The notes beneath the pieces were generated by a model. The model was not told the origin of the DNA. It ran no database searches and was given only the letters and a program-made list of their open reading frames with translations. The translations under genes and the position numbers were made by a program. 64,000 nt of DNA. It comes from Helicobacteraceae bacterium. GTDB lineage: Bacteria; Campylobacterota; Campylobacteria; Campylobacterales; Sulfurimonadaceae. Location of the stretch: NCBI GenBank assembly GCA_013138865.1, contig WTBY01000033.1, forward strand, positions 489-64,488. The letters are read 5' to 3'. Shown here piece by piece: positions 40,673-53,075 of the stretch; the first letter of the stretch is position 1; each line of letters begins with the position of its first letter.

Positions 40673-41413
40673 TTAAATTCTCTCTAAAAGTTCACTTGTA
40701 AATTTTTGATAATCACGTAAACCTTTTGAGCGCTTAGGGTTAAGAACAACAGGAGAAGCCGACTCAAACATTTTAGCTAGTTTTATATCTACCCCTATTG
40801 GTGAAAATAGTTTATTTTCACCAAAAGATTTTTTCACTTTCTCTAACATTAATTTATGTTCATTTATATGTGGGTTATACATAACAGGTAAAATACCAAT
40901 TTCTGCTATATCACGACCTATTTGTGTTGCTGATTGATATATTGCTCTCATCATCTGACCAACTGCTACTACACCTAAATGATGCGGTTGAAATGGGATC
41001 ACAACTGCGTCACATACTTCTAATGAATTTTTTAACAGTGCATCAAATGTAGGAGGAGTATCAATAATACAGTAGTCAAAAAACTCAGCTATTTTTTCAT
41101 GTTTAAAGCGACTTTTTAAGACACCTCTTAAGTCTGCGTATTCATAAACATCAAAAAATTCTAATGCCGAAGAGACAGTTAATCCATCATGAATAGTTGG
41201 TTTGAAAGTTTCACTTAGAGTTTTACCTAGAAATATAGAGTGAGCGCCACACTCTTCAGATAGTTGGCATCCTACTCCCATAGAAGCATGACCTTGTGTA
41301 TCAAAGTCTATAAGTAAAACAGAACCTTTTTTAGCTAACTCAGAAGCTAAGTTTACCGCTGTTGTTGTTTTAGCTGAACCACCTTTACGGTTACTAATTA
41401 CAATGGTCTTCAC
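40673..41413 (-). CDS. ParA/MinD-family ATPase (chemosensory-array partitioning type)
   Basis: Deviant Walker A ISNRKGGSAKTTT and ParA-like Walker A'/B regions. Embedded in the che block. Confidence 0.8.
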   Translation of the reverse strand: MKTIVISNRKGGSAKTTTAVNLASELAKKGSVLLIDFDTQGHASMGVGCQLSEECGAHSIFLGKTLSETFKPTIHDGLTVSSALEFFDVYEYADLRGVLKSRFKHEKIAEFFDYCIIDTPPTFDALLKNSLEVCDAVVIPFQPHHLGVVAVGQMMRAIYQSATQIGRDIAEIGILPVMYNPHINEHKLMLEKVKKSFGENKLFSPIGVDIKLAKMFESASPVVLNPKRSKGLRDYQKFTSELLERI

Positions 41414-41663
41414 TTAAACTAAATCCTTCTAAAACTTTTTGATAAATAAGTATCTTATCAGAAAACTTATAGTTACAAACACATAACTTTTTATATGCCA
41501 TAATTTGTTGTAAAAGTGCTAAGTGAACATCTTCACATGCAGTAAAATCAAATGTGATTTCAGTAGGTGCAACTTCTAGAAGGTGATCACGAAGTGCTGG
41601 AACTTCATCTTCGTACATAACTCCATCAAAAATTACTTCATTTTCTTTAATATTCATTCCCAT
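41394..41663 (-). CDS. small acidic hypothetical protein (weakly STAS-like)
   Basis: 89-aa ORF overlapping the parA-like start by 20 nt. The segment ITFDFTACEDVHLALLQQIM faintly resembles an anti-sigma-antagonist/STAS core. Confidence 0.35.
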   Translation of the reverse strand: MGMNIKENEVIFDGVMYEDEVPALRDHLLEVAPTEITFDFTACEDVHLALLQQIMAYKKLCVCNYKFSDKILIYQKVLEGFSLSEDHCN

Positions 41664-41678
41664 TTTTAATCCTTTATG

Positions 41679-42452
41679 TTAACTATTTTCTGGTAATTCA
41701 ACTGATTTAATTATATTTACTAAATAGTTGTCAAGGTCTATAATACCTTCAAGTTCTAAAAATTTACTCACTTTATTACTCTCTTTTCTCTCTTTTATAC
41801 TTGAAGGATCAATATGAGCGATATCTACAATAGAGTCAACTTTAATTGCGAAAGTTCCTTTTTCACTACCTTGATAGATAAGTAGTTTTTGTAAAGACGC
41901 GGCAACTATGTCAAATTCTGCTATAAAAGTATCGATAGCACCCATTGTATGGTTATAAATTTCATATACTTCAGTCTCAACTTTTTTTATTGCTGCTTCT
42001 TGATCTACTTCTAAAAGTTCTAATATTTCAACAGCAGACGTATGAAGTGTTTTATGATAAGTATTAAGCTCTTTTAATATTTCACTTACATGCTCATCAT
42101 ACGATGTAAAACCATCTAACCATTTACCAAGTTCACATATATGAGGATTTGTAGTTTTATTAAAAGTGACTTTTTTAGTAACACTCATTTTTAGTGCTTC
42201 TACCCACTCTGTATGTTGAATTTTAAGTTTATCAAATAGAACTTTCAACTCACTCCCATAAGTAGGTAAGTTTATCATTTCACGAAAACCAACAACTTTT
42301 ATTACATTATCTTCATATGACATCATACCCTCTACAAGAGGGTGTGAATTAGGTATATCTGTAAGAATAGGTGCTTGTATAATTCTTTGGATATTTTCTA
42401 TACTAACAGCATACCTATTATTTTGTACTGCAAAAATCATTAAATCTTTCAT
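41679..42452 (-). CDS. CheW-like coupling protein with an internal CZB (chemoreceptor zinc-binding) domain
   Basis: CheW N-half (residues 1-70) and C-half (about 189-257) flank a CZB motif set: H80-x2-W, H104-x-C106-x-LGKW, H133-x3-H137. Confidence 0.8.
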   Translation of the reverse strand: MKDLMIFAVQNNRYAVSIENIQRIIQAPILTDIPNSHPLVEGMMSYEDNVIKVVGFREMINLPTYGSELKVLFDKLKIQHTEWVEALKMSVTKKVTFNKTTNPHICELGKWLDGFTSYDEHVSEILKELNTYHKTLHTSAVEILELLEVDQEAAIKKVETEVYEIYNHTMGAIDTFIAEFDIVAASLQKLLIYQGSEKGTFAIKVDSIVDIAHIDPSSIKERKESNKVSKFLELEGIIDLDNYLVNIIKSVELPENS

Positions 42453-42453
42453 A

Positions 42454-43221
42454 CTATTCTCCTATATTAATTTTATCTATTACACTACGAAGAACTTTTT
42501 GATGTTCTAAAACACCAACAATATTCATCTGTTTATTAGTTCTTCTTAAACGATCATCTGACTGAATAATAGAGCTATCAGTGTGTAATATATCATCTAT
42601 TTTATCAACAATTAAACCAAAAAGTTTATCTCCATTTCTCAATACTAAAAGTTTTTGCATTTCCTTAGATATATTTAAAGTCAAATTAGAAAGCTCATCT
42701 ATATATGAACATGTAGTTTTAAAAAGGGGTTTAACATTTAGCTCAAGTTCCTCAAGTGCTTTTTCTAAACTCTCTTTTCTAGCCTTAACAACTTCAATAC
42801 CACTCTCATGAAAATGGTTATGTGCTTGAACTAATTTTCTTAGTGTAGGTGCAACTTCTGAGTCAAAAGTGTGAAAAGAATCTAACCATTTCCCTAGTTG
42901 ACACATATGAGGATCAAAAGATTTAGTAAATTTTGTGTTATTTTCAACACTTAATTTAAGCTCGTTAAGCCATATAACATGTTGCTCTTTTAGAGAAAGG
43001 AATAGATCTTTTAAGTCATCAGAGTAAGCCGTTAAGTTAACCATTTTTCTAAAAGAGGCTACATTTATAACATTATCTTCAAAGCTCATCATACCTTCTA
43101 CTACAGAGTTAGGTTTGTTATTCTGTTCAAATTTTTCTAACATTATAATTCTATGCACTTGGTCTAGAGGAAGTGCATAATTTAACTTACCTACTGTAAA
43201 AAGTATATAACTTGTTTGCAT
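42454..43221 (-). CDS. CheW-like coupling protein with an internal CZB domain (paralog)
   Basis: Same split architecture: H81-x2-W, H105-x-C107-x-LGKW, H134/H136/H138. CheW-like sequence lies on both sides. Confidence 0.8.
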   Translation of the reverse strand: MQTSYILFTVGKLNYALPLDQVHRIIMLEKFEQNNKPNSVVEGMMSFEDNVINVASFRKMVNLTAYSDDLKDLFLSLKEQHVIWLNELKLSVENNTKFTKSFDPHMCQLGKWLDSFHTFDSEVAPTLRKLVQAHNHFHESGIEVVKARKESLEKALEELELNVKPLFKTTCSYIDELSNLTLNISKEMQKLLVLRNGDKLFGLIVDKIDDILHTDSSIIQSDDRLRRTNKQMNIVGVLEHQKVLRSVIDKINIGE

Positions 43222-43226
43222 ATATA

Positions 43227-46025
43227 TTAACCTACTTTAGCTTCCATCTCATCTTTTAGTTGATGAGCAATACCTAAAATACCTAAAGGATCAATTGCTA
43301 AAATAATTTGTCCATTACCAAGAAGTGCAGTACCACTAAAGATCTGATGACCTTCCATAACACCCTCAAGTGGTTTTTGAACAACGTCTAGTTGACCTAA
43401 GAACTCATTAACTACGATCGCAATTAAGTTACCTTTTACTTCAAGAACAACTACAGATAGAGCTTCATCATCTAAAGCATCTTCGTTAAGCATAGACTTA
43501 ATAAATAGTAGAGGAATAACTTCTCCACGAAGATATACAAAAGCTTCATTATGTAAATACTCTATTTCACTTCTTGCGATTTTTACAGTCTCATTTACGT
43601 TATCCATAGGAATACCATAGTGAATATCATTCATAAAAATATGTAAAAGTGAAGTAACAGCAAGTGAAACAGGAATAGCTAACGTAATTGTAGTACCTTG
43701 GTTTGGAACTGTAACAATATTAATAGTTCCACCAAAACCTTCAATTGACTTTTTAACAACATCCATACCAACACCACGACCACTAAACTCACTAATTTCA
43801 TCAGCAGTTGAGAGACCAGGAAGAAGAACTAACTCAGCTTTTTCATTGTCACTAAGAGCGTCAATTTGCTCCATAGTCATAAGTCCAGCATCAATAACTT
43901 TAGAAATCACTTTAGTTGTATTAATACCAGCACCATCATCTTTGATCTCGATAATAATTTTATCAGACTGCGCAAATGCTCTTAAATCAACATTACCTTC
44001 TGCTGTTTTGCCTTTATCTGTTCTTGTTTCAGGATCTTCTATACCATGATCAAGAGAGTTTCTCATAATATGAATCATTGGATCAGCTAACATTTCGATC
44101 ATATTTTTATCTAATTTAGTCTCTCCACCATCCATACTTAGGTTTACTTTTTTACCAAGTTTTTTAGAGATGTCACGAACAAGTTTAGGATAGCGATCGA
44201 AAACATAAGAGATCGGAAGCATACGCATAGACATAATAAGGTCTTGTAGTTGTTCTGATAGACGGTTTATAAAAGTATATTTTTCCATAATTCCGCGTGA
44301 GATCATCTCTTTAGACATATCATCAACACCCTCAGCTAAATAAGGTAGTGAGTTTTTAGCAACAAGTAGTTCTCCAACGATATTCATTAAGTTGTCAATT
44401 GACTCTTGATCAATTTTAACTGTTTTTCCAACAACAGCTTTAGCTTTAGCTGGTGCAGTTTTTTTAGCATCATCTTTTGGCTCAGGAGTAGGTGTTGCTT
44501 TAACAGTTTTCACAACTGGTTCAGGTGTAACTTCTTTTACAACTTCTGGTGCTTTTACTGCAGGTATAGGTGTAGTTTTAACAACTTTAACAACTGGTGT
44601 AGCTACAACTTCTTTAACAGCTTCTACTACTGGAGCAGATTCACTTTCAAGGCCAAGTTGAGATTTAATCCAAGAGATAGTCTCTTCTGTTGAGTTAAAA
44701 GTTGCAGGCATATTAGCGTAGTACTTACGAGTAAGTTCAAGTATAGCTACAACACGAGGTAATAAAGTATCATCACCTTGCATAGTCTCTAATGCTAATA
44801 GTTGTTGCTCTAAAATAATTTGTAAATTAGTTTCAATATGCTCATCTACAACTACTATTTCAGTAGCAGGTACTTCTTCTTTAACTATTTCAACTGGAGT
44901 AGGTGTATCTTTGCTAACTTCAGTTGTAGCAGGTGAAGTAGCTACAATGCCATCAGCACTATAAGCAGTTCCTAAATCTAGTGTACTAAAGAATGCATTT
45001 AATTCAGCAAAGTCTTCATCTTTTATAGAGTCCATAATCATTAAGAATCTATTTAATTGTGCATATTGAATAGTCTCTTGACCTATTAAAGGTAAAGTTT
45101 TTTCAATTTCTGCTTTCAAAGAAGCTTTATCGCTGGAAGCTAAAAAGCCAGATACGGTTGCATTTAACTCTTTTAAAACATCAAGTTGTAAGTCATGTTC
45201 ACCACTATCAATTTCAAGAAGTGCAGTAGACGAAAGAGGTGAAATTTTAATCTCATCTAAGAAGTTAAATAATGATTCTTCTATTTCATCATAAGTACCA
45301 TACACAACAGCAGTAATTTGACAACGAAGTAAAAGCCCTTCTTCATCTTCACCACTTAAAAGACCTTTAGCACAAGTTTCACTCATACATACGTGAATAT
45401 CTATAACAGCATCACCTAAAAGCGAAAGTGTATATATTGGATCATTACCATAAACCATACTAGACTCATCAATATCAAAAATAATACCATAAAGTCTAGG
45501 TTGAGCAAATGCTGTCTCATCCATTTCAGGTGTAGTTAGTTCTAGTTTATTACTGTTGCGATTAAGTGCAGTAAATGGTAAGTTAACAATTTCAGCAGGT
45601 GACTCTAACATTGCAAATGGTGCTTCCCATGCATCAGCTTCATTACTTTTTCCCATAGATGCACGAAGTTCAGATACGATCTGTTCAACTGTCTCAGGAT
45701 CAGAATCAACGATATCTTCAGTCTCTTCAGCTGCCTCAACAAGGTTTAAAACTTCATCAAAAGCATTAAATAGTGACTCTGTCATAGACTCTTGAAACTC
45801 TATTTGACCTGATCTTAAAAGATCAAGAAGATCTTCAGCATGGTGAGTGATCTCTTTTACAGATTCAAAACCAACAATACCACTACCACCTTTAAGTGTA
45901 TGAGCCGCACGAAAGACCGAGTTTAGAAGTTCTGGATCATCTCCACCAATTGCTTCTATATTTTGATCAATAAAAGCTAAGTTTTCTCTGGCTTCTTGTA
46001 AAAACTGTTCTAATAATGGATTCAT
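43227..46025 (-). CDS. cheA: chemotaxis histidine kinase CheA (long form, no receiver)
   Basis: Hpt AAHTLKGGSG, dimerisation/HATPase boxes (HIMRNSLDHGIE, DDGAGI, GRGVGMD) and a C-terminal CheW-like P5. About 430 aa between Hpt and the kinase core are unassigned, including a Pro/Val/Lys-rich stretch. Confidence 0.95.
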   Translation of the reverse strand: MNPLLEQFLQEARENLAFIDQNIEAIGGDDPELLNSVFRAAHTLKGGSGIVGFESVKEITHHAEDLLDLLRSGQIEFQESMTESLFNAFDEVLNLVEAAEETEDIVDSDPETVEQIVSELRASMGKSNEADAWEAPFAMLESPAEIVNLPFTALNRNSNKLELTTPEMDETAFAQPRLYGIIFDIDESSMVYGNDPIYTLSLLGDAVIDIHVCMSETCAKGLLSGEDEEGLLLRCQITAVVYGTYDEIEESLFNFLDEIKISPLSSTALLEIDSGEHDLQLDVLKELNATVSGFLASSDKASLKAEIEKTLPLIGQETIQYAQLNRFLMIMDSIKDEDFAELNAFFSTLDLGTAYSADGIVATSPATTEVSKDTPTPVEIVKEEVPATEIVVVDEHIETNLQIILEQQLLALETMQGDDTLLPRVVAILELTRKYYANMPATFNSTEETISWIKSQLGLESESAPVVEAVKEVVATPVVKVVKTTPIPAVKAPEVVKEVTPEPVVKTVKATPTPEPKDDAKKTAPAKAKAVVGKTVKIDQESIDNLMNIVGELLVAKNSLPYLAEGVDDMSKEMISRGIMEKYTFINRLSEQLQDLIMSMRMLPISYVFDRYPKLVRDISKKLGKKVNLSMDGGETKLDKNMIEMLADPMIHIMRNSLDHGIEDPETRTDKGKTAEGNVDLRAFAQSDKIIIEIKDDGAGINTTKVISKVIDAGLMTMEQIDALSDNEKAELVLLPGLSTADEISEFSGRGVGMDVVKKSIEGFGGTINIVTVPNQGTTITLAIPVSLAVTSLLHIFMNDIHYGIPMDNVNETVKIARSEIEYLHNEAFVYLRGEVIPLLFIKSMLNEDALDDEALSVVVLEVKGNLIAIVVNEFLGQLDVVQKPLEGVMEGHQIFSGTALLGNGQIILAIDPLGILGIAHQLKDEMEAKVG

Positions 46026-46034
46026 TTAAACTCC

Positions 46035-46403
46035 CTATCGTTTCAATAAAATTTCTATATAAGCTTTAAGTTGATCAGGCTTAATAGGTTTTGTTTCAAA
46101 TAAGTTTGCACCTACTCTATACGCTTCTAATTTATCACTCTCTTTAGCTTGAGTTGTAATCATAATAACCGGAGTTAATTTATATTTAGGTTGTTTACGT
46201 AACTCTAAGACAAAAGAGTAACCATCCATTACAGGCATATTAACATCAACCAAATATAAAGATACATCGTTATCTAAACTACGTTCTAACGCTTCCATTC
46301 CATTTTCAGCTTCAACGATATCAATACCAATTTCACCTAAAATTGCACCATGATAACTTCTTACAGTTTTTGAATCATCTACTACCATAATTTTTGACAT
46401 CAT
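46035..46403 (-). CDS. cheY: CheY-like single-domain response regulator
   Basis: 122-aa REC (VVDDS, LVDVNMPVMDG, TKP). Confidence 0.85.
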   Translation of the reverse strand: MMSKIMVVDDSKTVRSYHGAILGEIGIDIVEAENGMEALERSLDNDVSLYLVDVNMPVMDGYSFVLELRKQPKYKLTPVIMITTQAKESDKLEAYRVGANLFETKPIKPDQLKAYIEILLKR

Positions 46404-46408
46404 ATCTC

Positions 46409-46780
46409 CTAACGTAAACGCAATACTCTAGTTATTGCTTGTTCTAATTGCTCTGGATTAAATGGTTTAACAATCCAACCAGTAAGACCTAACTCTTTTC
46501 CTTGCTTTTTCAACTCATCTTTTGTTTCAGTTGTAAGCATTAATACAGGAGTCCTCGAAGTAACTTCTAACTTACGAAGCTCAATCATAAACTCAAAACC
46601 ATTCATAACTGGCATATTTAAGTCAGTTATAATAAGGTCTGGTTTTACACCTGCATTAAGATCAGCAAGTGCTGCTTGTGCTTCACTATACTGTTTTACA
46701 TCTATTGGCATTGAATTTGTGATCATACGTGTTGAAGCTAATGCTGTTTCACTATCATCTACAAAAATTACTAATGGCAT
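46409..46780 (-). CDS. cheY: CheY-like single-domain response regulator (second copy)
   Basis: 123-aa REC (FVDDS, IITDLNMPVMNG, VKP). Confidence 0.85.
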   Translation of the reverse strand: MPLVIFVDDSETALASTRMITNSMPIDVKQYSEAQAALADLNAGVKPDLIITDLNMPVMNGFEFMIELRKLEVTSRTPVLMLTTETKDELKKQGKELGLTGWIVKPFNPEQLEQAITRVLRLR

Positions 46781-46792
46781 AAAATTCTCCTA

Positions 46793-47623
46793 TTATTTCT
46801 GGTACACTAAAGTGTCACCAATTTTTTTAGCTTTATAAACTGAAACAATTCTACTCATATACTCAGCATGTCCTAAAAGTACATATCCATCTGGATTTAA
46901 CAGATCGTAAAATGTCATTGCAACCTCTTTACGTGAAGCATCATCAAAATAGATAAGCATATTTCTAGAGAAAATAACATCAAACTTACCAAGTTTTCTA
47001 ACATCTGTCTTATCAAAAATATTACATACTTTAAAGTCAACAGTACCTATTAGATCATCTATAAGTTTGTACCCAAACTGTTTTTTATCAAAGTAAGCTG
47101 ATAGAACTTTTTTTGGTATTGCATGAACAGCGCGATCAGAATAGTTTGCTTTTTTTGCTTTTTCAATTACAGTAGAATCAATATCTATACCAACTATTTC
47201 TATATCTCTCTCTTCTATAAGTTTAGCTTCTTCAAGAAGATGTAAGATCATAGAATATGGCTCTTCACCCGTAGAGCTTGGTGCAGAAAGAATTCTTAAA
47301 ATTTCTCCAGCTGGTTTTGAAGCATGAATTTCAGGTAAAATATGGTTAACTAAAACTTCAAACTGATTAACTTCACGATAAAAATATGTTTCATTTACAG
47401 TTACCGCATTCATTAACTCTTGAAATTCTAGCCCATCAGCATCATCAAAACGAAGTTTATAAAAATATTTTCTAAAACTATCAAACTCTAATTCAGTACA
47501 ACGAGATGACATATATTTTACTAACTTATCAAAATGCTTATCTACTTCTAGGTAGATTCCACTTTTTCTATATATATATTCACTAAGTTTATTAAAATTC
47601 TCTTCTGATAACACGACTGACAT
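46793..47623 (-). CDS. cheR: chemotaxis protein methyltransferase CheR
   Basis: N-terminal helical domain plus SAM-binding motif ILSAPSSTGEEPYS and FSRNMLIYFD. Confidence 0.9.
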   Translation of the reverse strand: MSVVLSEENFNKLSEYIYRKSGIYLEVDKHFDKLVKYMSSRCTELEFDSFRKYFYKLRFDDADGLEFQELMNAVTVNETYFYREVNQFEVLVNHILPEIHASKPAGEILRILSAPSSTGEEPYSMILHLLEEAKLIEERDIEIVGIDIDSTVIEKAKKANYSDRAVHAIPKKVLSAYFDKKQFGYKLIDDLIGTVDFKVCNIFDKTDVRKLGKFDVIFSRNMLIYFDDASRKEVAMTFYDLLNPDGYVLLGHAEYMSRIVSVYKAKKIGDTLVYQK

Positions 47624-47624
47624 A

Positions 47625-48251
47625 TTAGTTATCCTTAATAGCTTTGATAGCTTTATCTACACCAAAAGAGACATAAGCATCATCATGGAACCTAGTTTTA
47701 AGATCTTCTAATAATGGAATATCTTCTTCTTCACCTATTTCACCTAAATAATCAACGGCCGTCATTGCAACATTTATATCTTCTTCACTGTCTAAAAGCT
47801 CCACTAGCATATCACGTGACTCTGCAAAGTTAACATCACCAAGAACATTAATAGCAAAAATTCTAAGATCACGATCATCACCTATTAAAAACTTAACTAT
47901 ATAGTATTTAATTGAGTCACCAAAATCTTGTAACATACAAATACCTAAATTTCTAACATAAGCGTCATCTAGTTTCAAAAGGTCCATAATAGACTCTATC
48001 GGAGCAGTTTTACCATCCATTTTAGAGATAGCAGCAGCTATATGAGCCTCAACATTTTTTTCAGTCTCTTCTTCAACTAGTTTAGAAATTAAAAGTTTTG
48101 GACCCTCATTAAATGTCATCATTTGATCAACAGCATGAACACTATGATCAAAATTTATGGAGTTTTCAAAATATTCATCAGCTTCTTCTAAAGAGTCAAA
48201 TGTTGGTAACTCTTCTATAACTTGAGCTGTATGTTTTTTAACTAATGCCAT
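47625..48251 (-). CDS. HEAT-repeat (PBS-lyase-like) protein
   Basis: At least three HEAT-like units (DAYVRNLGICMLQDFGD, DRDLRIFAINVLGDV, DINVAMTAVDYLGEIG). Confidence 0.65.
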   Translation of the reverse strand: MALVKKHTAQVIEELPTFDSLEEADEYFENSINFDHSVHAVDQMMTFNEGPKLLISKLVEEETEKNVEAHIAAAISKMDGKTAPIESIMDLLKLDDAYVRNLGICMLQDFGDSIKYYIVKFLIGDDRDLRIFAINVLGDVNFAESRDMLVELLDSEEDINVAMTAVDYLGEIGEEEDIPLLEDLKTRFHDDAYVSFGVDKAIKAIKDN

Positions 48252-48264
48252 AATATCTCCTTAC

Positions 48265-49374
48265 TTATCTTATAGTAACAATTTTTTTAACAATTTGTGT
48301 AAAAGATAGCTGTTCCATTACTCCACCATTTTCAAAAGCAACACGTGGCATACCATAAACAGTACAACTATCTTCGCTTTCACCCATAGTAAAACCACCA
48401 GCTTCTCTGATCGCTACCATACCTTCTGCACCATCATCACCAATACCAGTTAAAAGGACAGAAGTTATTTTTGCTCCACCAAATACTTTTAAACCACTTA
48501 AAAACGTCTCATCTACACTTGGTTTAAAAAAGCGCCCTTTATCGTTGTCATTTTCACTTACAACTATAGTTCCTGAAACTTTTTTGGTAAATTCCATATG
48601 CGATCCACCACGTGCTAAATAGATATTTCCAGGGCAAATTTCCATACCGTGTTTAGTATGGTGTACATTTAGCTTAGATGATTTATTTAGTCTACCAGCA
48701 AATGCTTCAGTAAACTGTGCAGGCATATGTTGAACAATACAAACCGCGTGAGGAAAATCAGCAGGCAAGGATGAACATATTTGCTCAATTAGCCCAGGTC
48801 CACCAGTAGACGCACCTACAAAAATAATTTTTTTTATATCTTTTGAAGATGTAGTTGGTTTTACTATTTCATTACTTTTAGATACTCTTTCAGTACGATT
48901 AGGTCGTTCAGATATTTCATTTTCAGGTTCATTTCTTCTTATTGGTCTACGAGCTCTATTTGCTTTTATTCTACGTTTTGATATACGACTTAATGCCTGA
49001 AGTTTTTCTATAATATCTTCAGAGTTTTCATGTTTACCGATATTCATAGTACCAGGTTTTGTAACGTAATCAATTGCACCTAAGTCTAATGCTTCCATCG
49101 TTGAAGTAGCATTGTCAGAAGTTAAAGAGCTTACCATAAGAATAGCAGATGGGTTTTTTTTCATAATTTCACCAACAGCAGTAAGACCATCCATCACTGG
49201 CATATTAATATCCATAGTAATTACATCATAATCAGTAGCACATGCTTTATCAACACCCTCTTGACCATTTTTTGCAGTCTCTATTTCAAAATCTAGTCCA
49301 CTACCTTTAATAAGTTCAGACAACTGTTTTCTAACTAGTGCTGAATCGTCGACTATTAGTACCTTTTTACTCAC
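48265..49374 (-). CDS. cheB: chemotaxis methylesterase CheB (REC plus esterase)
   Basis: REC N-terminus, linker, GASTGGP and the CheB esterase pattern. Confidence 0.9.
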   Translation of the reverse strand: MSKKVLIVDDSALVRKQLSELIKGSGLDFEIETAKNGQEGVDKACATDYDVITMDINMPVMDGLTAVGEIMKKNPSAILMVSSLTSDNATSTMEALDLGAIDYVTKPGTMNIGKHENSEDIIEKLQALSRISKRRIKANRARRPIRRNEPENEISERPNRTERVSKSNEIVKPTTSSKDIKKIIFVGASTGGPGLIEQICSSLPADFPHAVCIVQHMPAQFTEAFAGRLNKSSKLNVHHTKHGMEICPGNIYLARGGSHMEFTKKVSGTIVVSENDNDKGRFFKPSVDETFLSGLKVFGGAKITSVLLTGIGDDGAEGMVAIREAGGFTMGESEDSCTVYGMPRVAFENGGVMEQLSFTQIVKKIVTIR

Positions 49375-49387
49375 ATTAAACCTTTAT

Positions 49388-50752
49388 TTAATTAAATATA
49401 TCATTAATTTTAAATAATAATACAAGTCTATTGCCACCATCTAAATGTAGTACATTTGAAAAAAGAGCTGCGTTATCTTTTGCTTCACGAATATCACTAT
49501 CTAAAATATTATAAATTCCACTTACACTATCAACTCTAAAACCCATTTGAGTACCATTAATATTACAAATAATTATTTTTTCTTGGACACTTTTTACTTC
49601 TTGCACACCTAATCGCCTATGAAGAGAAACAAGAGTTACAATCTGACCACGTATGTTTATAATTCCATCAACTCTAGAGTCACTAAGAGCAACATTTGTA
49701 GAGTCTATAACATCCATAATCTCTGCAACATACTCTATATCAAATGCATATTCTACGCTGTCAAGTTTAAAAACAACAACTTCTAACTCGCCCCTAACTT
49801 GAAGAGCTACTTCAGTTTCTGAAGAGTTTGAAAATTTGTCATTTTCAGCAATTAATGGGATCAAGGCTTGAGAAGAGATAATAGATATTAACTGTTCACC
49901 AGAATGTATTACACCAGATATTTTTGTATCTTGAAAATTAATAGGCATACGCTCTAATTCTGATTGTTCATACTCTGCAATATCTAAAATCTGATCAACT
50001 ATAAGTCCAATTTTTTTGTCATTTACATAAACTATAAGTACTCTATTTTTATCACTACTAGTAGCTTCTAAATTATAGTACATTCTAAGATCAGCTATAA
50101 TCATTAACTCTTCTCGAAGTGAAACAAGACCTAAAATTTCAGCAGATGAACCAGCAATATCACTATAATCAGTAGGAACTGTAATAATCTCTCTTAAATC
50201 ATCAATATGCACGGCAAACTGTTCATTCGCCATCTTAAAGACTAAGTATCTCTCTTTATTAGATATTTTTTCAACTACTATTCCAGACTTTGTTCCATCT
50301 TTGATCTCAATAGGATCATATTTTTTTAACTTAACCCCTGAGCTTAAAGTTTTAATATCTAAGACTTGTATTATTTTATTATTATTATTATTATGGTAAA
50401 TTGCACAAATAGCACTTTCATCACTTGAATCAACTGATTCAAGAGACTCTTCATCTACACTCAATGTAATTGTGATAGATGATACTAGCATAGCCATCTT
50501 TTTATCATCATCATTTAATAATAAAAGTCTACTATCTTCATTTTCAACATCAACTTGTCCAATATCTAACAAAATATTCAGATCAAGTGCCGGTGTAATA
50601 TCACCAGCAACAGCACAAAGTCCACGGACTTCTCTTGGCGAGAGTGGTAAAACTGTTAGGTTTGGAACTCTAAGAATTTGGTCTATTTTGTTAGTATCAA
50701 TAGCATAGCTGATATCATCATGCTCTATGACTAATATCTCTTTAATTTGCAT
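49388..50752 (-). CDS. triple CheW-domain coupling protein
   Basis: Three successive CheW-like modules in 454 aa, each with the ...YAI/FAV...V.EI... and ...G.IVD.I... patterns. Confidence 0.8.
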   Translation of the reverse strand: MQIKEILVIEHDDISYAIDTNKIDQILRVPNLTVLPLSPREVRGLCAVAGDITPALDLNILLDIGQVDVENEDSRLLLLNDDDKKMAMLVSSITITLSVDEESLESVDSSDESAICAIYHNNNNNKIIQVLDIKTLSSGVKLKKYDPIEIKDGTKSGIVVEKISNKERYLVFKMANEQFAVHIDDLREIITVPTDYSDIAGSSAEILGLVSLREELMIIADLRMYYNLEATSSDKNRVLIVYVNDKKIGLIVDQILDIAEYEQSELERMPINFQDTKISGVIHSGEQLISIISSQALIPLIAENDKFSNSSETEVALQVRGELEVVVFKLDSVEYAFDIEYVAEIMDVIDSTNVALSDSRVDGIINIRGQIVTLVSLHRRLGVQEVKSVQEKIIICNINGTQMGFRVDSVSGIYNILDSDIREAKDNAALFSNVLHLDGGNRLVLLFKINDIFN

Positions 50753-50755
50753 AAA

Positions 50756-52636
50756 TTAACCTTGTTGTAGCTCATCTGCCATAACAGCTAACTCTTCAAC
50801 ACCATCACCAATATGTGAAATTGTCTCTATAATTAACTCACTAGCTTTTCTTGATTCCATAGCATTTCTTGCCGAAAGCTCAACTGCTTTTTGGATCTCT
50901 GTAACACCAACCATACCTTGGTTTAATCCTTCAAGATTTTGATCATTTACAGATTTAAGTCCCGCGTAACGATCTATTAAATCTACTAACATATCTGAAA
51001 TTTTATCTATATCAGTAAGAAGAGAGTCTATTCTTGTATGCTCTTTTCCTTGATCACTTAAAAGTTGACCCCAGTCATTTCTAACTGTATCAATTTCAGC
51101 ATTCATAGACTCAATAGTATCATTAATTTTTTCAGTATTTGACTCAGAATCTTTTGCTAAGTTACGAATATCAGCTGAAACAACTGCAAAACCTTTTCCA
51201 AACTCACCAGCACGTGCAGCCTCAATAGAGCCACTGATTGCAAGCATATTTAACTGAATAATAGAGTTAGAAATATTTCCAACTGTTTTGTCAACATTTC
51301 TAGTCTCTTTAACAATAACTTCTATCTCATTATTAGCAGAGTTACCCTCATTTATAGAATTTTGAAATGCCTCTTTAATTTTTACGATTGTAGATTTTAC
51401 TGAAAGGAATGAAGTTTTAACTAAATCGAAGTTACGACGAGCAATATTAATAAGTTCATCAATATCTTTAGCCGCAGATAGACCTATCTCTAAGTTATCT
51501 TTATTTTTAAGTGCGCTTTGGTTTGTCGTAGTAGAACTAGCTTCAATTTGGTTAAGAGCACTAGTTACATCTACAAGAGCAGATTGGATCTCTTCCATAC
51601 TACCACCAATAGCGTCAGCACTACTAGCAATCTCTTCAGCAGATTTCATAGAGTCTGTTGAGTATTTAAGCTCTTCTGCTAAGTTTGAAAGCTCTTTAAT
51701 ATCGTCTTCTGTTTGAACCAATGCAGATGACTGAACATCTATTCCATTTAAAGTTTTTTCAACTGAAAGTGCAATTGAGTGAGAAGAGTCAGCAATATCT
51801 TGACTTCCATCATTTACACTTTGAGCAGCTTCACCTAAAGTAGTAGTATAAGAGTGAATACTTCTAGCCGCTTCAACTGAATAGATTGCTATTTTAGTTA
51901 GTTCTTCCATTTTAAGACTTAACTCTGTACCAGTTTCACCAGTTGTAGAGATTATGTCAGTAGTACCAACGATACTTTTTATAATATCATCTATACTACT
52001 TTGAATTTTATTTACTAACTCAGAGATAAATTCTGCATTTTTCTCACTCTCACCTGCAAGTGCACGAGTTTCATCAGCAACAACTGCAAAACCTTTACCA
52101 TGCTCTTTAGCACGACTTGCTTCGATCGCAGCATTAAGTGCAAGAAGATTAGTCTGATCAGCAATTTTAGCAATAAAACCAACAGCTTCACCAATATTTT
52201 CAGAAGATAGTTTTAACTCTTCTGATTTTTTAGAAGATGCTTTTGCAACTTCTACTGCACTGTTCATACGACCTACACTAGAATTAATTGTACTAACAGC
52301 ACCTATAATACTATCACCAGTAGCAGATGTTGAACTAATAACAGTATCAATTGTAGAGTTCATACGATTTATGTTCGCGTTAATAGCTTTTACGTTTTTA
52401 AGAGCTTGTTCACTTGCTCCACTATTCTCTTCAGCTGCAGTTGCAATTTGCTCCATTGAAGACTTAAGTTCTTCGATCGCACTTACACTCTCTTGAGCGT
52501 TGTTTAATATATTAGATGCAACACCTGCAATACCTTCACTAATTTGCTGTTGTTTAGCAAGCGTTCTTTGGCGACGCTTATTATCACTTGCTCCACTTGA
52601 AACTACCGCTGAGTTAGATTTTTTAACTAATGCCAT
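50756..52636 (-). CDS. soluble methyl-accepting chemotaxis protein with two signalling hairpin tips (DosM-like)
   Basis: No TM segment. Tip 1 is QTNLLALNAAIEASRAKEHGKGFAVVADETRALA (aa 161-194). Tip 2 is QLNMLAISGSIEAARAGEFGKGFAVVSADIRNLA (aa 461-494). Confidence 0.9.
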   Translation of the reverse strand: MALVKKSNSAVVSSGASDNKRRQRTLAKQQQISEGIAGVASNILNNAQESVSAIEELKSSMEQIATAAEENSGASEQALKNVKAINANINRMNSTIDTVISSTSATGDSIIGAVSTINSSVGRMNSAVEVAKASSKKSEELKLSSENIGEAVGFIAKIADQTNLLALNAAIEASRAKEHGKGFAVVADETRALAGESEKNAEFISELVNKIQSSIDDIIKSIVGTTDIISTTGETGTELSLKMEELTKIAIYSVEAARSIHSYTTTLGEAAQSVNDGSQDIADSSHSIALSVEKTLNGIDVQSSALVQTEDDIKELSNLAEELKYSTDSMKSAEEIASSADAIGGSMEEIQSALVDVTSALNQIEASSTTTNQSALKNKDNLEIGLSAAKDIDELINIARRNFDLVKTSFLSVKSTIVKIKEAFQNSINEGNSANNEIEVIVKETRNVDKTVGNISNSIIQLNMLAISGSIEAARAGEFGKGFAVVSADIRNLAKDSESNTEKINDTIESMNAEIDTVRNDWGQLLSDQGKEHTRIDSLLTDIDKISDMLVDLIDRYAGLKSVNDQNLEGLNQGMVGVTEIQKAVELSARNAMESRKASELIIETISHIGDGVEELAVMADELQQG

Positions 52637-52652
52637 AATATTTACCTTTTTC

Positions 52653-53075
52653 CTAGTCTAATGTAGCGTAAAGCTCAATTGATTTCTTAATATCTTCACG
52701 AGTTGGTTTCACACGAATTGATACATATTTAGTATTTCCACTTTTGTCAATTGAACGAAGAACTGTTGCATATACCCAGTAATGTCCTCCACCTTTACGT
52801 GCATTTTTAACAAAACCAGTCCAAAATCCTTTTTCTTGGACATCGTCCCATAAGCTTTTAAATGCAGCACGAGGCATATCTGGATGGCGAACAACATTAT
52901 GTGGCTGACCAATAAGATCACTCGGGCACATATTTGCTATTTTAAAAAAAGAGTCACTTGCATAAGTCACTATACCCTTTTCATCTGTTTCTGATAACAA
53001 GTATAAGTCATCATATAATACTTCACCATCATCTAAAAATGTTAGACCTTCTGTGCTTACTGTACAATCTGCCAT
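52653..53075 (-). CDS. standalone Aer/CetB-like PAS (FAD-type) sensor protein
   Basis: GQPHNVVRHPDMPRAAFKSLW...KNARKGGGHYWV closely follows the E. coli Aer PAS core (GQPHNMVRHPDMPKAAF...KNRRKNGDHYWV). Confidence 0.85.
   Translation of the reverse strand: MADCTVSTEGLTFLDDGEVLYDDLYLLSETDEKGIVTYASDSFFKIANMCPSDLIGQPHNVVRHPDMPRAAFKSLWDDVQEKGFWTGFVKNARKGGGHYWVYATVLRSIDKSGNTKYVSIRVKPTREDIKKSIELYATLD

Follow-up and report, generated by a model that had tools for sequence, protein, structure and literature searches.

A probable DosM orthologue with two signalling tips in the class-F9 chemosensory operon of a Sulfurimonadaceae genome

[quoted passage not shown] 2016, as summarised in PMC7534058). These baseplates are reported to lie 35 nm apart. 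The V. cholerae receptor VC1403 has been assigned to heptad class 44H, and F9 systems are known from the literature to pair with 44H receptors. The distribution of such systems was explored by Mo et al. 2022 (PMC9321776), who screened 2,781 genomes for the combination of DosM and CheW3. In their data 98% of the DosM homologues have no transmembrane segment or sensory domain, and the V. cholerae cluster order is given as DosM-W3-B-.-R-Y-A-.-Y-M. Among 82 Campylobacterota they counted two full and three partial F9 sets. Full clusters with DosM and CheW3 are listed in their Table S6 for Sulfurimonas gotlandica GD1 and Sulfuricurvum sp. 17-40-25, and the order in those two Campylobacterota is DosMW3B.RY.YAW1 (PMC9321776).

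The window examined in this study (the whole 64,000-nt stretch of DNA, to which all coordinates refer unless a contig or locus is named) encodes a double-tipped receptor of this kind. We consider it very probably a typical orthologue of DosM, the known scaffold receptor, here in a Sulfurimonadaceae genome, and its gene the first structural gene in a class-F9 chemosensory operon that is complete; this confidence extends to the reading as a whole, including the rod and array arrangement discussed below. An initial reading made from the sequence alone had seen in this architecture a possible extension of the array type to another phylum. That extension had already been published in silico by Mo et al. 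2022 (PMC9321776), and the presence of DosM and CheW3 in Campylobacterota, including Sulfurimonas and Sulfuricurvum, has thus been known since 2022. We found no imaging of a two-layered F9 array in Campylobacterota in the literature searched. As a finding the locus matters little, given that a receptor with two tips has been described before, as have its partnership with CheW3 and its presence in Sulfurimonas and Sulfuricurvum. Our additions are minor and consist of a statistic on the tip spacing, a conserved junction box, a shared N-terminal motif and several lineage-specific accessory genes.

Two signalling domains in a single soluble protein

The features of the receptor gene are as follows.

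50756..52636, minus strand: dosM-like gene for a soluble MCP of 626 aa that has two signalling domains (ORF, Pfam MCPsignal, AlphaFold model)
52619..52636, minus strand: MALVKK motif at the N-terminus, also present in the operon's HEAT protein
52415..52444, minus strand: putative methylation-consensus site ATAAEENSGA, aa 65-74, in the N-arm of domain 1 (conservation peak)
52055..52147, minus strand: hairpin tip 1, aa 164-194, LLALNAAIEASRAKEHGKGFAVVADETRALA, more strongly conserved than tip 2 (helix interrupted at aa 180 according to DSSP)
51653..51673, minus strand: junction box E-L-K-x-S-T-D, aa 322-328, halfway from one tip to the other (model, family conservation)
51578..51607, minus strand: putative methylation-consensus site GGSMEEIQSA, aa 344-353, in the N-arm of domain 2 (conservation)
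51155..51247, minus strand: hairpin tip 2, aa 464-494, MLAISGSIEAARAGEFGKGFAVVSADIRNLA (turn at aa 477-479 when the C-terminal half is modelled by itself)

The 626-residue protein was described in the sequence-only reading as having no hydrophobic segment. This is well borne out by a highest Kyte-Doolittle mean over 19 residues of 1.03, far under the value of 1.6 used as the threshold for a transmembrane segment, and the chain does not contain a single proline. Searched as a whole against Pfam, the protein gives two MCPsignal stretches (E 2.7e-48), this being the sole family above the cut-off. The two matches hold up when the halves are searched separately, each of them lying above the cut-off of 34.6 bits (105.4 and 72.1 bits), and when aligned with each other the halves are 25% identical (E 5e-15). 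The 3.03-Mb genome contains about 20 MCP genes, and two signalling domains in one frame occur only in the dosM-like gene. A chance origin of the two-domain architecture is excluded. The claim that the MCP tip sequence is present twice at a distance of 300 residues proved exact, with tip 1 at aa 164-194 and tip 2 at aa 464-494. The nucleotide ranges given along with it (about 52049-52165 and 51149-51265) locate the tips correctly, the precise bounds being off by up to 18 nt.

The F9 operon and its relatives

The remaining genes of the cluster, all on the same strand, are listed in the order of transcription with the exception of the dosM-like gene itself, which lies between the first two.

52653..53075, minus strand: stand-alone Aer-type PAS protein of 140 aa, with which the operon opens (Aer PAS domain match)
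49388..50752, minus strand: CheW3, 454 aa, three CheW domains in one protein (three CheW stretches)
48265..49374, minus strand: CheB methylesterase (domain match)
47625..48251, minus strand: HEAT-repeat protein, 208 aa, conserved F9 gene between cheB and cheR (domain match and order in named clusters)
46793..47623, minus strand: CheR methyltransferase (domain match)
46035..46780, minus strand: two single-domain CheY-like response regulators, at 46409-46780 and 46035-46403 (domain match)
43227..46025, minus strand: F9 CheA, 932 aa (domain match)
41679..43221, minus strand: two CheW::CZB genes, 255 and 257 aa (domain match)
40673..41663, minus strand: 89-aa protein and ParA-like ATPase, 246 aa (similarity)

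The cluster is thus read PAS, DosM, CheW3, CheB, HEAT, CheR, two CheY, CheA, two CheW::CZB, the 89-aa protein and the ParA-like ATPase. It forms a tight minus-strand operon in which CheW3 begins only 3 nt past the dosM stop codon; the pairing with a triple-CheW scaffold, anticipated in the initial reading, is confirmed by the three CheW domains of this neighbour (49388-50752). The dosM-like gene is the sole MCP gene of the cluster. A scan for a promoter or terminator upstream of the PAS gene gave a result not above shuffled expectation.

The identification as DosM, already proposed from the sequence, draws on the two signalling domains, the lack of a membrane or sensor part, the adjacency of the triple CheW, the F9 gene order and homology over the full length. 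The order DosM-W3-B-(HEAT)-R-Y-A, with a CheA of its own, is that of the named F9 clusters. The likeness to VC1403, assessed by description rather than by sequence, concerns a soluble, sensor-less two-domain MCP with signalling domains probably of the 44H type. Its gene adjoins that of a triple CheW, and CheB, a conserved small gene, CheR, CheY and CheA come next. Compared with the V. cholerae cluster the window operon adds the PAS gene, a second CheY, two CheW::CZB genes and the ParA-like ATPase. Relatives from the same bacterial family are the proteins of S. gotlandica GD1 (WP_008339912.1; 76% identity) and Sulfuricurvum sp. 17-40-25 (OZA02490.1; contig L050), with 75-76% identity over the full length for the pair and the same operon order.

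Two catalogued DosMs were confirmed by accession, those of Azospirillum oryzae KACC 14407 (WP_149198667.1) and Sphaerotilus D-507 (WP_149505510.1), the latter being 33% identical to the window protein over aa 1-624 (E 5e-85). The MCP and CheW accessions of these two clusters appear as DosM and CheW3 in Table S6 of Mo et al. 2022. Both clusters are ordered DosM-CheW3-CheB-HEAT-CheR-CheY-CheA; they differ from the window operon in having one CheY before CheA and neither PAS, CheW::CZB nor ParA genes. Their DosMs have a tip spacing of 300, a C-arm of 146-147 residues and a MAL[VI].K N-terminus. Sphaerotilus DosM in addition shares an RTLAKQQQ box and the junction, as ELK-x-S-S-D, while the junction of Azospirillum DosM reads DLEGTAD.

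On a larger scale, a HMMER scan of 1.84 billion representatives returned 137 clusters at E <= 1e-30, most of them 620-660 aa long and colinear. The 80 loci kept from a scan of reference genomes all belong to Sulfurimonas, Sulfuricurvum or other Campylobacterota bins, and they encode a DosM-like protein of 74-78% identity in an uninterrupted frame of 626-633 aa. The accompanying genes are found in most of them: CheW3 in 78, the PAS gene in 77, CheB and HEAT in 72 and CheR in 71. In an even sample of Campylobacterota the DosM-like gene is present in only 11 of 401 genomes, and its distribution in the phylum is therefore sporadic. Conservation in at least 80 genomes makes the F9 system of the Sulfurimonadaceae a good experimental entry point, which moreover offers plausible dedicated inputs in the form of a redox PAS and zinc/oxidant CZB domains. 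It also encodes a ParA-type positioning ATPase, for which there is no counterpart in the V. cholerae model.

Some details of the cluster vary between relatives. In 66 of the 80 related loci a gene for a 129-aa protein lies between the two cheY genes (e.g. L050:16195-16584). The window genome differs in this respect, as the gene is absent between its cheY genes (46403-46409) and has no match anywhere in the source genome. The D-I-I-A-Q sequence of the 129-aa protein resembles the D-x-x-x-Q signature of CheZ. The CheW encoded after CheA carries a CZB domain in the window, while in Sulfuricurvum sp. 17-40-25 it is a plain protein of 142-152 aa; the CheW-CZB architecture as such has been catalogued previously, and the window has two such genes after cheA. 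The ParA-like ATPase gene overlaps the end of the 89-aa ORF, whose product shows weak similarity to that of a post-cheA gene of 78-79 aa in the F9 clusters of Azospirillum and Sphaerotilus (E 1e-4 and 4e-3). Within CheA (932 aa) no Pfam domain is found at aa 96-533, which leaves some 430 residues without assignment between its Hpt and dimerisation domains. For CheA-F9, a 2026 preprint on Vibrionales describes an additional region that separates P2 from P3. Two further CheA loci are present in the genome, on contigs C76 and C77, and FlhA is encoded within the window; the three CheA loci fit the published F3+F7+F9 pattern.

Predicted rod, tip spacing and alternative arrangements

A full-length AlphaFold monomer model built on 42 homologues (mean pLDDT 88.2) shows helix throughout aa 18-625, interrupted only at aa 180, in tip 1, and at aa 324-328. 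Since DSSP gave no helix break at tip 2 in the full-length model, residues 329-626 were modelled alone. This second model (pLDDT 89.9) has helices at 5-148 and 152-297 of the fragment, and the turn between them corresponds to residues 477-479 of the full-length protein. It superimposes on the 44H receptor Tm1143 (2ch7_B) with TM scores of 0.72/0.70 over 293 columns and on the model of a B. subtilis receptor with a TM score of 0.91 (rmsd 2.1 Å). Tip 2 is thus predicted to lie where a complete hairpin of helices, matching Tm1143, turns back on itself, and the concern that it might fall outside a coiled-coil hairpin does not hold in the model. The arms measure 160, 143, 149 and 145-148 residues in the AlphaFold model, or about 21-23 heptads, which would fit the 44H class. 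The best matches in both sequence and fold are 44H receptors, namely Tm1143 and B. subtilis MCPs, with small gaps required in the Tm1143 alignment.

These features suggest an all-helical rod in which two MCP hairpins of the 44H type would be joined head to tail through four arms of some 145-160 residues, roughly 21 heptads each. By analogy with V. cholerae VC1403, the homodimer would be a bundle of four helices that carries a kinase- and CheW-binding tip at either end. One tip could then insert into each of two baseplates made of CheA and CheW3, holding together a membrane-free array of two layers. This arrangement is transferred from V. cholerae to the window organism, where the distance of 300 residues between the tips would act as a ruler and determine how thick the array is.

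The spacing itself was surveyed between the two tip glycines in 106 full-length representatives with pairwise identities of at most 50%. It amounts to exactly 300 residues in 76 of these distant sequences; five others have 402-404, and the remainder fall between 252 and 332, mostly at 288-305. The C-arm past tip 2 is similarly constant, with 145-149 residues in nearly all of the 106. Because 76 of the 106 and both named proteobacterial DosMs have a spacing of 300, we take the ruler to be a feature of the whole family rather than a peculiarity of the window gene. The five proteins with 402-404 residues between the tips (P0175, P0182, P0186, P0190 and P0229) have about 100 residues extra, which would correspond to a longer rod or to an inserted element. 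The family-wide spacing leads to a simple, testable prediction of array thickness. On a straight rod 300 residues span about 44 nm (300 x 0.148 nm), a distance that exceeds the 35 nm separating the V. cholerae baseplates.

This excess is one of the points in favour of an alternative in which the chain makes a U-turn at aa 324-328, so that the two hairpins lie side by side in an intramolecular bundle of four helices, with both tips at the same end. Such a protein would mimic an ordinary MCP homodimer within a single chain and would not bridge two baseplates. The region of the junction box is, apart from the tips, the only non-helical stretch of the AlphaFold model; these five residues lie exactly midway between the tips, and the E-L-K-x-S-T-D sequence is conserved across the family. 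The four arms are also nearly equal in length, as a fold-back requires. A weak hint in the same direction comes from Foldseek, where the monomer model matched compact membrane proteins of about 700 aa with an rmsd of about 57-60 Å, as if the model measured some 22 nm rather than 44 nm. However, a prediction made for a monomer is expected to bury the dimer interface by folding back and says little about the native state. Moreover, folding back demands only that the arms be equal, whereas a near-invariant distance of 300 residues is more easily understood as a ruler for a fixed distance between plates. We therefore regard the folded-back, non-bridging protein as quite unlikely and retain the two-ended rod.

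The two tips of the protein are not equivalent. Within the DosM family conservation is highest at the tips, and higher in tip 1 (0.85-0.96) than in tip 2 (0.73-0.80). The residue of tip 2 that aligns with N381 of Tsr is an invariant serine in the Sulfurimonadaceae and an asparagine in Sphaerotilus; N381 is a trimer contact in Tsr, and its equivalent in tip 2 of the window protein is serine. One could imagine from the lower conservation, and from the lower Pfam score of the second half (72 against 105 bits), that the protein is a tandem-duplicated soluble receptor working through tip 1 only, with domain 2 decaying or repurposed, e.g. as a spacer. Yet the columns of tip 2 (461-494) are almost all invariant among 42 Sulfurimonadaceae sequences, and nearly all distant representatives retain its core E-x-x-R-x-G-E-x-G-K-G-F-A-V-V. 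The second half also passes the Pfam cut-off twofold and forms a full-length hairpin in the model, and a receptor with one working tip is accordingly very improbable. That two adjacent MCP genes were fused by an assembly or frame error is next to inconceivable, the same frame being found in 80 independent genomes or MAGs, in more than 120 database clusters and in about 100 colinear distant representatives.

Candidate inputs, adaptation and a shared N-terminal motif

Signals must enter the presumed two-ended array through other parts because DosM has no sensor domain. The gene content of the operon points to the Aer-type FAD-PAS protein and the two CheW::CZB proteins as candidate inputs. The 140-aa PAS protein matches the Aer PAS domain with an E value of 9e-30 and is encoded 16 nt upstream of dosM. 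At 77-89% identity in the related loci it is better conserved than DosM, and we found no PAS gene in the two proteobacterial F9 clusters examined (Azospirillum and Sphaerotilus). CetA and CetB form a bipartite energy-taxis system in Campylobacter, in which the HAMP domain of the membrane-bound CetA receives the signal of the PAS protein. The window operon resembles CetA/CetB, and Aer, in that a stand-alone Aer-type PAS gene adjoins the gene of the presumed transducer. Unlike CetA, however, the DosM of the window has neither a membrane anchor nor a HAMP domain.

Further inputs could come from elsewhere in the genome, where three MCPs without transmembrane segments carry a C-terminal CZB domain (TlpD-like; 441, 355 and 360 aa). 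Their genes, in the source genome G000, are the following; ranges on the minus strand are counted on that strand.

C12:23798-25120, minus strand: soluble MCP-CZB gene
C53:75870-76934, plus strand: soluble MCP-CZB gene
C54:8960-10039, minus strand: soluble MCP-CZB gene

These three soluble receptors are candidate inputs and candidate co-receptors for the cytoplasmic array.

Besides its role as a scaffold, the rod may be a substrate for adaptation, as suggested by the putative methylation-consensus sites together with the cheR and cheB genes of the operon. Apart from the tips, four segments close to the middle of the rod (aa 61-70, 281-290, 331-350 and 611-626) show secondary peaks of conservation, and two of these segments contain the methylation-consensus sites.

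The sequence MALVKK opens both the DosM-like protein (52619-52636) and the HEAT protein (48234-48251). In the form M-[AG]-L-x-K-K it recurs in DosM and the HEAT protein across the 80 related loci, and it is likewise present in the F9 clusters of Azospirillum and Sphaerotilus as well as in numerous distant DosM representatives. It looks like a docking peptide common to the two proteins. ParA was considered as the partner of MALVKK but is not supported, as both DosM and the HEAT protein retain the motif in the two proteobacterial clusters, which have no annotated ParA gene.

Combining these elements, one might picture the F9 system of the Sulfurimonadaceae as a sensor-less ruler lattice that receives its inputs not through receptors but through accessory proteins, namely the stand-alone Aer-type FAD-PAS protein and the CZB domains borne by baseplate CheW proteins, and in which MALVKK, as a docking peptide conserved across phyla, recruits DosM and the HEAT protein. 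We regard this extended scheme as rather doubtful. If it were true, either the array should be thicker than the 35 nm of V. cholerae or the rod should not be straight. At the DNA level, 23 nucleotides around the start codon are identical between the dosM and HEAT genes.
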